This document shows positions 10,147 through 11,383 of a DNA stretch of 24,754 bases, one piece after another. Origin of the DNA: Bacteroidales bacterium (GTDB lineage Bacteria; Bacteroidota; Bacteroidia; Bacteroidales; UBA12077); the NCBI GenBank assembly GCA_028282585.1, contig JANQHR010000143.1:1-24754 (forward strand). The letters are read 5' to 3'. Both the position numbers and the translations under genes were made by a program. Numbering within the stretch: the first letter of the stretch is position 1; every line of letters starts with the position of its first letter. The notes beneath the pieces are model-generated. The model searched no databases. It was not told where the DNA came from and saw only the letters and a program-made list of their open reading frames with translations.

Positions 10147-10174
10147 GCTAGCGCTCGTAAGTAACGAGTGCTAG
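10147..10174 (+). repeat. Hairpin element, copy 1 (GCTAGCGC-TCGTAAGTAACGA-GTGC)
   Basis: Stem CTAGCGCTCGT / ACGAGTGCTAG (11 bp, one G-T pair) with a 5-nt loop, 12 nt after the immunity stop. Same layout as the 10297 and 11154 elements. Confidence 0.7.
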
Positions 10175-10191
10175 TTTTTAATGTTCTTTGA

Positions 10192-10317
10192 AAAAGAGAA
10201 GTTGCGCAAGCTAGCGGAGATGAAGGAACAGGTCTTGTGAATTTAGAACCTGAGTACATTGGAGGAATTACTCCTGCAGTTGGAGTAGGAAATGCTCCCG
10301 CTCGCGCGGATTTATAA
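10192..10317 (+). pseudogene. Start-less remnant of a further RHS tip (KREVAQASGDEGTGLVNLEPEYIGGITPAVGVGNAPARADL*)
   Basis: TGCGCAAGCT at 10203-10212 is identical to 9210-9219 (the AQA junction of the main toxin). The frame runs into the hairpin element at 10297 and stops inside it. Confidence 0.5.
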
Positions 10318-10783
10318 TCCGGGCATAATAAGTGAGGAAAATAGTGATGGTGAAAATAAGGAGGATAAAGATGATGAGCAAGCTGATGGAGATGATTTGC
10401 CTGCAAAAGAGAAGTTCAATAAGGGTTTTGATAAAGCTTATTATTACGCTTATAATAATGCATTTGTTATAGGAAGTCACGATGGTTTTGTTAGACTAAC
10501 ATTTCATTATCCACTAAGCAGTAGTTTCCCTGTATCATTGAGAAGGGCATTTTGGCGCTTGTCTAGTTATGATCCATTTTTAGCAGGTCATAATGCGGGT
10601 TTAATTGATGGTAATTATTTTGGATATGTTCATGGTTATGAATGGGGGAATAATCAGCGAAAAGAATTTATAAAGAATAAAAGATTTGCACCTTGGGATA
10701 GTGATGTGCCCGCGGGGAAATATGATCCAGTATCTCCCCTTTTACCGGAATGGTATAAATATTATAAGCAATTGAAATTTTAA
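10292..10783 (+). CDS. Orphan RHS C-terminal toxin module (alternative tip)
   Basis: Begins with a copy of the main toxin linker (EENSDGENKEDKDDEQADG), then an unrelated ~130-aa domain with G/A-xxx-G periodicity. The ATG lies just upstream of the repeat and may be fortuitous. Confidence 0.8.
   Translation: MLPLARIYNPGIISEENSDGENKEDKDDEQADGDDLPAKEKFNKGFDKAYYYAYNNAFVIGSHDGFVRLTFHYPLSSSFPVSLRRAFWRLSSYDPFLAGHNAGLIDGNYFGYVHGYEWGNNQRKEFIKNKRFAPWDSDVPAGKYDPVSPLLPEWYKYYKQLKF
10297..10331 (+). repeat. 35-bp direct repeat / hairpin element, left of orphan cassette
   Basis: CCCGCTCGCGCGGATTTATAATCCGGGCATAATAA; 33/35 identical to 11154-11188; internal palindrome CGGATT-TAT-AATCCG. Confidence 0.92.
10333..10390 (+). 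repeat. Acidic linker copy 2 (30-bp internal deletion relative to copy 1)
   Basis: TGAGGAAAATAGTGATGGTGAAAATAAGGAGGATAAAGATGATGAGCAAGCTGATGGA versus 9138-9225; the deletion lies between the two GATGG(T/A)GAAA units. Confidence 0.9.
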
Positions 10784-10799
10784 TCTAAAACAAATTTTT

Positions 10800-11219
10800 A
10801 TGATGGATATTAAATTTAAAGTGAGTATATTAAATATTATAAATGCGTTAGGGATATTGATTTATTTGTTTAATCTAGTTATAACTCCATTTGAGTTTAC
10901 TTTTGGTACTTTTTCTTTTGGAATTTTCTGGTTTATTTTATTATTGTTACCTGCAATTGTTCCTATATTATTTAATAGTAAAGCATGGAAATATTTTGCT
11001 TTTATACTTGGAATTATATGTACATTGTTCAATCTAGTTATTGGGTTGGGGTATATTTTGGATAACCAAATGCAAATCGGTTTAATGTTAATATTTTATT
11101 GGAGTATCTTTGGAGTTTTAGCGATAGTATTCTGCTTTAAATGGATTAAACAACCCGCTCGCGCGGATTTACAATCCGGGCGTAATAATTTTAAAAAGGC
11201 CCTGATAAGCGCAGCTTAA
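10800..11219 (+). CDS. Putative immunity protein for the orphan tip; four predicted TM helices
   Basis: Starts 16 nt after the orphan stop and has four hydrophobic segments. The C-terminal tail (PARADLQSGRNN...) is read through the right-hand repeat. Confidence 0.72.
   Translation: MMDIKFKVSILNIINALGILIYLFNLVITPFEFTFGTFSFGIFWFILLLLPAIVPILFNSKAWKYFAFILGIICTLFNLVIGLGYILDNQMQIGLMLIFYWSIFGVLAIVFCFKWIKQPARADLQSGRNNFKKALISAA
11154..11188 (+). repeat. 35-bp direct repeat / hairpin element, right of orphan cassette
   Basis: CCCGCTCGCGCGGATTTACAATCCGGGCGTAATAA; 33/35 identical to 10297-10331, offset 857 bp. Confidence 0.92.
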
Positions 11220-11236
11220 TACATTAGTTAGAAGTT

Positions 11237-11267
11237 CGGCGTAGCATTCGCTACGTCGTTCTTTTTT
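11237..11267 (+). terminator. Probable intrinsic terminator ending the toxin locus
   Basis: CGGCGTAGC-ATTC-GCTACGTCG stem (9 bp, one G-T pair) followed by TTCTTTTTT. Confidence 0.6.
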
Positions 11268-11360
11268 GGTAGTTTTTAATTATCATTGTCTTGTAAAACA
11301 AAAAACACTCGGTGAAGTTTAACGTTAGGAATCAAGTAAGTTAATTGCTTATTAGGATTG

Positions 11361-11383
11361 TCACGCGTCATAGATGCGCCAGC
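11361..11383 (-). repeat. Degenerate inverted copy of the hairpin element
   Basis: The minus strand reads GCTGGCGC-ATCTATGACGC-GTGA (11-nt rather than 13-nt core); the plus strand forms the hairpin CGCGTC-ATA-GATGCG. Confidence 0.45.

Follow-up and report, generated by a model that had tools for sequence, protein, structure and literature searches.

REP-type hairpin elements behind Rhs toxin-immunity modules of a Bacteroidales genome and a probable RAYT partner of subclass 2.6

We analyzed a 24,754-nt stretch of a Bacteroidales genome (contig JANQHR010000143.1, here contig C159 of the assembly G000, which comprises 4.89 Mb in 173 contigs at 31.9% G+C), called the window below, in which 3 short hairpin elements punctuate the genes behind a polymorphic toxin gene of the Rhs family. 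The elements are probably repetitive extragenic palindromic (REP) sequences of the Bacteroidota type, operating together with a REP-associated tyrosine transposase (RAYT, or TnpA_REP) of subclass 2.6, and we consider their placement at Rhs modules probably a by-product rather than the work of a dedicated cassette machine.

Hairpin elements in the Rhs locus of the window

The main toxin is ordered as DUF6443, RHS repeats, Rhs core, linker, and C-terminal tip, and its gene is followed by a putative immunity gene, a short remnant, an orphan toxin tip, and a second putative immunity gene (Table 1). We identified the 3 elements where an earlier note on this DNA, made from the sequence alone, had seen them, and with the layout it had described, GCTnGCGC-stem-loop-stem-G(T/G)GC. 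Their cores read GCTAGCGC-TCGTAAGTAACGA-GTGC in element 1 (10147-10171), GCTCGCGC-GGATTTATAATCC-GGGC in element 2 (10300-10324), and GCTCGCGC-GGATTTACAATCC-GGGC in element 3 (11157-11181). As the note had also observed, each stands at a module boundary, namely after immunity gene 1, at the junction of the remnant and the orphan, and at the end of immunity gene 2. Elements 2 and 3 form a 35-nt direct repeat on the same strand, 94% identical, and bracket exactly 1 orphan tip with its immunity gene; a 27-mer pattern allowing up to 3 mismatches matched only these 2 elements in the window and none of 100 shuffles.

Folded as DNA, element 1 reached -10.7 kcal/mol (z -4.39), with an A.A mismatch atop the inner stem that leaves a 5-nt loop, and element 3 reached -10.4 kcal/mol (z -3.25). 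With its outer pairs and T-run, element 1 also fits the terminator consensus (scan match at 10147-10175), but elements 2 and 3 lack a T-run and did not fit it in the same scan, and the canonical terminator-like hairpin of the array lies separately from element 3, 18 nt past the stop of immunity gene 2. The degenerate inverted copy that had been noted farther downstream was matched by the covariance model described below and retains its feet; its hairpin is poor and folds no better than shuffles, and it is a marginal, decayed REP copy.

Element 1 starts 12 nt past the stop of immunity gene 1, a gene without a Pfam match and without an assigned family. The remnant holds no open reading frame (ORF) of at least 50 aa, and tblastn searches with 2 of its reading frames against the genome returned only the remnant itself. 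The start of the orphan ORF is probably not native, its first codons running through element 2. Homology to the main gene begins 2 nt after the end of that element and covers 58 nt of linker (92.7% identity over 55 nt and 100% over 23 nt by blastn), with no core retained. A search of 400 genomes of the order gave a single homologue of the orphan tip, which is fused to an Rhs core on a contig that stops just past the tip; metagenome contigs gave no confirmed homologue. Immunity gene 2 passes through element 3 with its last 21 codons, and the orphan and immunity gene 2 each occur once in the genome, with no second copy of the bracketed cargo.

Table 1. Features of the Rhs locus in the window
Feature	Position	Strand	Evidence
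Main Rhs-family polymorphic toxin gene, 1216 aa	6052..9702	+	Pfam DUF6443 and RHS_repeat; NCBIfam Rhs_assc_core at residues 901-990
Putative immunity gene 1, 141 aa	9709..10134	+	ORF list; role assigned from position
Element 1, probable REP copy	10141..10177	+	Model R1, 30.9 bits, E 4.3e-7; 12-bp stem with T-run
Short remnant between elements 1 and 2	10178..10293	+	Sequence
Orphan toxin-tip ORF, 163 aa	10292..10783	+	ORF and translation
Element 2, probable REP copy	10294..10330	+	Model R1, 40.7 bits, E 5.7e-10; repeat unit 10297-10331
Orphan linker homology to main gene	10333..10390	+	blastn against 9138-9160 and 9171-9225
Putative immunity gene 2, 139 aa, hydrophobic	10800..11219	+	ORF and translation
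Element 3, probable REP copy	11151..11187	+	Model R1, 38.1 bits, E 3.3e-9; repeat unit 11154-11188
Canonical terminator-like hairpin with T-run	11237..11258	+	Terminator scan
Decayed inverted REP copy	11355..11389	-	Model R1, 14.4 bits, E 0.028

Two other identities were considered for the elements and rejected. A conserved protein motif (translations PLARIYNPG and PARADL) does not account for them, since the frame in which the ORF reads the element differs between elements 2 and 3 and the same DNA recurs in noncoding places. Mimicry of a tRNA anticodon arm fails on the 3-nt loop of the element, and the tRNA genes found carry merely similar words. No Rfam family matched positions 9000-12500 of the window or 3 element-rich loci elsewhere, the sole row being a sub-threshold snoRNA.

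The element family and its candidate enzyme

Written as a regular expression, the layout matched 29 sites in the genome, 28 of them clearly the same thing on reading, with inner stems as different as CGGAT, CCAAT, CTGAT, CAAAT, CTCGT, CGCGT, and CGGAC. The inner stem varies in sequence while keeping its pairing, as the earlier note had held, and a control that looked at the flanks only showed the family to exceed chance: a perfect 5-bp inner stem was present at 34 of 207 sites of the form G[CT]GC-N13-G[TG]G, against 0, 0, 5, 1, and 0 perfect stems for 5 permuted flanks. In an alignment of 29 distinct genome copies (A1), 97.7% of pair cells were standard and 5 of 9 pairs changed on both sides, compared with 30-48% pairing in slid controls, a covariation count that is partly circular because the copies had been picked by inner-stem pairing, a weakness of which the flank control is free. 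The covariance model built from A1 (R1) gave 41 matches in the genome at E<=1 and 38 at E<=0.01.

Close to the stem's base, one position reads G.T in 25 of the aligned copies and G.G in the other 4, and because of this fixed position the 2 strands of an element are not equivalent. The foot GCTnG is present in 26 of the 29 copies, with C8 and T9 invariant; the GT[AG]G tetranucleotide that marks the hairpin foot of canonical GTAG-type REPs (RAYT groups 2 and 3) was not found there. Copies linked to Rhs genes form their own subtype within the genome, with the stem GGATT and the 3' foot GGGC, and share 24/25 to 33/35 identities between unrelated loci. Behind an orthologous Rhs-immunity pair in a related genome (G003), the element keeps both feet and has 2 stem pairs changed in a compensatory manner, so the hairpin appears to have been retained over the long term.

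We searched the genome for Y1 transposase domains and identified 4 matches, 1 of them in a 188-aa ORF on contig C119 (locus L014, 1222..1788, minus strand). The protein passes the NCBIfam model NF047646, REP-associated tyrosine transposase, with 95.2 bits against a cut-off of 80, and carries the motifs NHLH, WQ, and YIHNNP, with H59, H61, W122, and Y143 invariant across 15 homologues. The single sequence matched no solved structure at E<=0.01; for a profile of the homologues the best solved structure was 4ER8, the TnpA_REP of Escherichia coli (E 1.3e-5), the alignment bringing together both the HUH and the Tyr motif. Upstream of the gene lie 2 elements in its own orientation and 1 inverted, and downstream lie 2 feet without hairpins. 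We most likely have in this HUH/Y1 protein the cognate enzyme of the elements, as judged from these motifs and neighbors, and the suggestion of REP-type hairpins served by an HUH/Y1 enzyme encoded outside the window was thus supported.

The same association recurs in relatives, for which 40 genomes were drawn (a 41-genome sample together with G000). R1 matched in 25 of them, and a protein of the C119 type was present in 21. Elements lie next to RAYT genes beyond C119 as well, a link that the earlier note had proposed to test for: at 10 loci in the relatives (genome:contig G009:C15, G029:C78, G016:C67, G020:C33, G012:C266, G012:C2, G008:C1, G003:C1, G024:C9, and G034:C127) an R1 match falls within about 100 nt of a RAYT orthologue or fragment, and the copies on the 2 flanks, at loci that show both, are usually inverted. 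By this arrangement, C119 and the orthologue loci have the anatomy of a REPtron.

Two of the RAYT orthologues (L018:1501-2103 in G009 and L024:1501-2055 in G006) carry in-frame insertions of 7 residues, LPAGKAG after residue ~101 in both and, in G009, a further LPVRQAG just past the catalytic Tyr. Their appearance is that of small palindromes inserted within the gene, which the literature describes for subclass 2.4 and, in the passages concerned, not for subclass 2.6 (PMC6006769). In another relative (G022:C16, L038 1338-1372 and 2685-2719), a more distant RAYT homologue (~46% identical) is preceded by its own repeat variant, CTGGCCGAATTTGTAATTCGG, which suggests that enzyme and repeat diverge together.

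Enzyme and repeat both resemble a described group. TnpA_REP subclass 2.6 corresponds to RAYT group 5 of Bertels and is found mostly in Bacteroidetes; its sections in the source give the motifs NH[LIV]H, WQ, and YIH[QN]NP, a mean length of 179 aa, and flanking structures called atypical, without GT[AG]G and with copies elsewhere in the genome, the repeats having been identified only by manual inspection (Quentin et al. 2018, PMC6006769). The rows of its Table S1 for this subclass include GCT[AG]GCGC-stem-3-nt loop-stem-GTG (rows 294-296) and CT[GA]GCGC-stem-loop-stem-GTGC (rows 322-323) (PMC6006769). The C119 system agrees in its enzyme motifs, in its protein length, in repeats that flank the gene, recur, and lack the GT[AG]G foot, and, within the repeat, in the foot, the stem of 8-9 bp, the loop of 3 nt, and the GTG(C) end. 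Because protein motifs and repeat layout match a subclass published in 2018, neither this kind of element nor its pairing with an HUH enzyme from elsewhere in the genome is new. Two differences are apparent: the passages of that paper on subclass 2.6 give no genomic preference, unlike the clustering behind Rhs modules and in an accessory island found here (PMC6006769), and the present genome has several composites of 2 hairpins with unlike inner stems.

Distribution of copies in the genome, its relatives, and other Bacteroidales

Within the genome, 28 of the 38 copies lie on 6 short contigs (C58, C90, C93, C103, C134, and C140; loci L001-L006) totaling 28.1 kb, with about 1 element per gene. 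The genes include an Xre/RES pair, an Abi_2 gene, an N6 methylase, RhuM, helix-turn-helix proteins, an extracytoplasmic function (ECF) sigma factor, NUDIX, and several DUFs. Among the 6, several have a terminal composite repeat in common or overlap each other (C103 and C140 end in identical composites, and C58 overlaps C90), so they are best read as pieces of one or a few REP-dense regions. In the composite, a form that many of the copies take, 29 nt separate 2 inverted elements whose inner stems differ.

The other 10 copies are on long contigs, and 8 of them lie 0.9-2.4 kb downstream of an Rhs core, on C61, C105, C119, and the window. Elements thus follow the immunity gene at 4 of the 6 Rhs loci in the genome; at the other 2 Rhs core loci, on C23 and C42, no R1 match was found in the flanks even with filters off. 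Of the 2 remaining long-contig copies, one lies on C118 behind an ankyrin-repeat gene that neighbors a HepT gene, and the other lies on C63 behind a 500-aa ORF, which adjoins a 390-aa ORF that resembles, by eye, a DnaJ chaperone. Nine of the 10 are co-oriented with the gene on their 5' side, the exception being the inverted partner beside the RAYT gene. On C61, a gene with a secretion-sorting tail is bracketed by 2 elements.

In the relatives, 6 of 94 R1 matches fall within 3 kb downstream of an Rhs core, at 5 loci (G003:C23, G016:C160, G018:C34, G023:C78, and G023:C155), each time after a small ORF that follows the toxin tip; by our arithmetic about 0.2 such matches would be expected from the share of DNA, a figure limited by the lack of independence among related genomes. 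An element lies downstream of only 5 of 94 Rhs core matches in the relatives, and among multi-orphan arrays G016:C160 has 1 element and G035:C18 none, the orphans of both arrays retaining the core. A concentration at Rhs modules, which the earlier note had proposed to look for with a covariance model, was seen in this genome; in the relatives, elements follow Rhs modules at the 5 loci and are lacking at most Rhs arrays. RAYT-family genes themselves occur within 4 kb downstream of an Rhs core in 5 of 50 RAYT matches (G000:C119, G003:C13, G023:C88, and twice in G025:C3), and in the 4 genomes concerned RAYT genes stand directly 3' of Rhs toxin-immunity modules (L035 in G003:C13, L036 in G023:C88, L037 in G025:C3, and L009/L014 in G000:C119).

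The position of the element was compared at C105, its paralogue C61, and G018:C34, which have in common the Rhs body and, downstream of it, a gene whose small protein product carries a secretion-sorting tail. In each pairwise comparison, similarity is lost where the Rhs core ends and returns at 7069=6658, 7069=2100, and 6658=2100, respectively, always within 3 nt of the start of an R1 match, and the intervening tip and immunity genes are unrelated. By these alignments, the element is the 3' edge of the variable tip-plus-immunity region in the 3 loci, which, as paralogues and orthologues, represent at most 2 independent events. The link to toxin modules that the earlier note had seen in the window thus extends, in this genome, to other Rhs loci.

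At C105 (L008 7100-7150) and G018:C34 (L030 2140-2176), an inverted doublet has as its first half the element after the immunity gene and is situated just upstream of the conserved small-protein gene with its secretion-sorting tail. At C61, the first half persists only in weak form, and the small gene is followed by a second, full copy.

We scanned one genome per species for the exact GGATT...GGGC pattern and identified 30 loci in about a dozen other Bacteroidales assemblies. At each, up to 5 ORFs of at least 100 aa were examined (the 2 nearest on each side and any spanning the element), 115 in total, and these were mostly housekeeping genes, among them cytochrome b, hisF/hisIE, ATP synthase, kdpD, clpB, pckA, and nusG. 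The 115 also included 2 Y1 transposases, 1 SUKH immunity protein, and 1 ParE toxin, and none contained an RHS repeat; at 5 further loci of the 30, the start of a RAYT gene was read directly after the element. Of the 30 copies, 19 share the orientation of the ORF on their 5' side. Taken as a whole, the family behaves as REPs ordinarily do, and its concentration at toxin and defense genes belongs to this genome and, to a weaker degree, to its genus. Even scatter without any link to toxin arrays, which the earlier note had named as evidence against its proposal, was not seen in the genome itself, where copies cluster; in the other Bacteroidales their neighbors are mostly housekeeping genes.

Only 1 of the 30 loci, in the record of an unrelated Bacteroidales metagenome-assembled genome (L047), has a polymorphic-toxin flavor. 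Its copy of the REP subtype (3501-3525) lies 238 nt past a gene of the SUKH/SMI1_KNR4 immunity family (2811-3263) and ends a run of small same-strand ORFs.

Origin of the placement at Rhs modules

On the reading that we prefer, and regard as probable, the elements are REP sequences of the type that accompanies the subclass 2.6 RAYT. Each is a 9-bp hairpin with a conserved foot (a C-rich run and GCTnG) and a fixed G.T or G.G near the base. By analogy with E. coli TnpA_REP and the TnpA of IS200/IS605, the C119 enzyme would bind the single strand in its folded form, cutting and rejoining beside the hairpin and so spreading or maintaining copies. E. coli TnpA_REP cleaves single strands of REPs and of BIMEs (bacterial interspersed mosaic elements) in vitro. 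In this genome copies have accumulated in flexible DNA, behind Rhs immunity genes and in a REP-dense island of toxin-antitoxin, abortive infection (Abi), and restriction-modification genes. New modules probably arrive with an element or recombine at one, and the Rhs placement would be a by-product of sites that tolerate REPs and of short shared homology.

Several observations weigh against this reading. The copies are clustered in the genome instead of being evenly scattered between genes like classic REPs. Three immunity ORFs end in an element or read through it (immunity gene 2 of the window and those at C105 and G023:C78). The exact coincidence of elements with edges, at the 3 loci compared above and at the orphan that begins 2 nt after element 2, suggests that the element takes part in rearrangements. 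To these are added the partial circularity of the A1 covariation count and an estimated contamination of 3.89%, the assignment of the RAYT contig and the window to one organism resting on the genome assembly.

The edges can also be read in terms of homologous exchange. In that case the element or its inverted doublet, as the only sequence common to otherwise unrelated Rhs loci, would act as the 3' crossover for RecA-type exchange of tip plus immunity gene, with the Rhs core as the 5' crossover. The way similarity ends at the core and resumes at the element among C105, C61, and G018:C34 is what such exchange would leave behind, and the near identity of the GGATT/GGGC subtype between unrelated loci would supply the homology. 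However, a stretch of 25-35 nt comes close to the minimum that efficient homologous recombination needs, the edges amount to no more than the 2 events counted above, and most Rhs modules in the relatives lack an element. We regard this explanation as unlikely.

An active cassette system, close to what the earlier note had proposed, would go further. The RAYT would excise units bounded by 2 elements as single-stranded circles and insert them beside another element, building arrays as integrons do, and the units would be nonautonomous elements of the IS200/IS605 kind, for example element 2-orphan tip-immunity gene 2-element 3. The same-strand direct repeats around 1 orphan and its immunity gene fit this picture, as do the bracketed gene on C61, the alternation of genes and elements on the short contigs with identical composites at their ends, and the RAYT genes behind Rhs cores. 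So does the structure of the orphan, which starts 2 nt after element 2 with linker and without core, a feature that simple displacement by core homology does not predict. Against it stand the single copy of the bracketed cargo, with no empty site and no excised or joined form seen in the genome, the small fraction of Rhs cores in the relatives that have an element, the arrays with 1 element or none whose orphans keep their core, and the housekeeping neighbors of the same repeat in other Bacteroidales. We consider such a system distinctly improbable. Equally improbable is its broader form, in which the RAYT would move REP-bounded units (the orphan tip with its immunity gene, or toxin-antitoxin, Abi, and methylase genes) as single strands beside resident REPs and so stock both the Rhs loci and the defense island. 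The idea of a dedicated machine for capturing and shuffling toxin-immunity pairs is unproven and does not apply generally.

Least probable of all is a signal acting purely at the RNA level, in which the elements would be terminators or 3'-end stabilizers of toxin-immunity operons and the RAYT link incidental: the terminator fit of element 1, the co-orientation of long-contig copies with their 5' genes, the conserved G.T position, which pairs as G.U in the sense transcript only, and the compensatory change between G000 and G003 speak for it, but a T-run is missing from elements 2 and 3, behind which comes a terminator of its own, an ORF contains element 3, the 5' end of the orphan coincides with element 2, inverted doublets are many, copies flank the RAYT gene on both sides, and co-orientation in other Bacteroidales is limited to 19 of 30.

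The elements can also be compared with other known systems. Like the REP/BIME sequences of E. coli with their TnpA_REP (4ER8) and the REPIN-RAYT systems of Pseudomonas, the family combines a single-copy HUH/Y1 gene flanked by inverted short palindromes with inverted doublets at ~30 nt spacing and stems that covary between subfamilies. It differs from them in the foot (GCTnG, not GTAG), in copy numbers of tens rather than hundreds, in clustering, and in doublet halves with different inner stems, because of which a doublet cannot fold into one long hairpin. With IS200/IS605 (IS608-type) ends, the window shares same-strand subterminal hairpins bracketing a segment and the Y1 HUH enzyme family; the segment itself, however, holds no transposase, and neither signs of a target or cleavage site nor a second copy of the segment were found in the genome.

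Integron attC sites, to which the elements had also been compared, are likewise folded, strand-asymmetric sites between small accessory genes, conserved in structure and variable in sequence. They are 57-141 nt long, with boxes R''-L''...L'-R' and a GTTRRRY core, whereas the element measures 25-37 nt, and neither a GTTRRRY-type core nor attC boxes are present in elements 1-3 or the consensus. The enzyme here is an HUH protein, not a tyrosine recombinase, and the best stretch for an integron integrase in the genome (TIGR02249) scored 117 bits against a cut-off of 265, with similar sub-threshold levels in 14 control genomes. The integron reading was rejected on these 2 grounds, the want of an IntI above cut-off and of attC boxes.

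The orphan itself resembles the Rhs orphans of E. coli and Salmonella that arise by core-homology displacement, in being a 5'-truncated tip with an immunity gene downstream of the main gene. Those classical orphans retain core sequence; the orphan of the window has none, its homology starting in the linker 2 nt after a REP copy.

A literature search covering few subscription journals returned no published link between REP or RAYT and the boundaries of Rhs modules. One preprint deals with both RAYT and Rhs, as separate topics in the parts relevant here, and mRNA stability, gene regulation, and genome structure are among the roles proposed for RAYTs and their repeats in the sources consulted. 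Subclass 2.6 is the least described group, and the genome yields a clean covariance model for its repeats. The part that deserves attention is the nonrandom placement at the 3' edge of the variable Rhs toxin region, together with RAYT genes behind Rhs modules in several species. If the placement reflects a mechanism, whether a crossover patch or a cut-and-paste boundary, it would link REP/RAYT biology with the exchange of polymorphic toxin modules; if not, this is an ordinary REP family in an unusual neighborhood.

A direct repeat of a different kind, ~120 nt long, was observed on another contig of the genome (G000:C169, L071, at 1-120 and 1606-1725), where it brackets a 343-aa gene adjoining a 376-aa tyrosine recombinase. 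The first 40 nt of this repeat recur on C36, C55, C138, and C170, and the bracketed protein resembles, by eye, the product of the first, cut-off ORF of the window (2..712).

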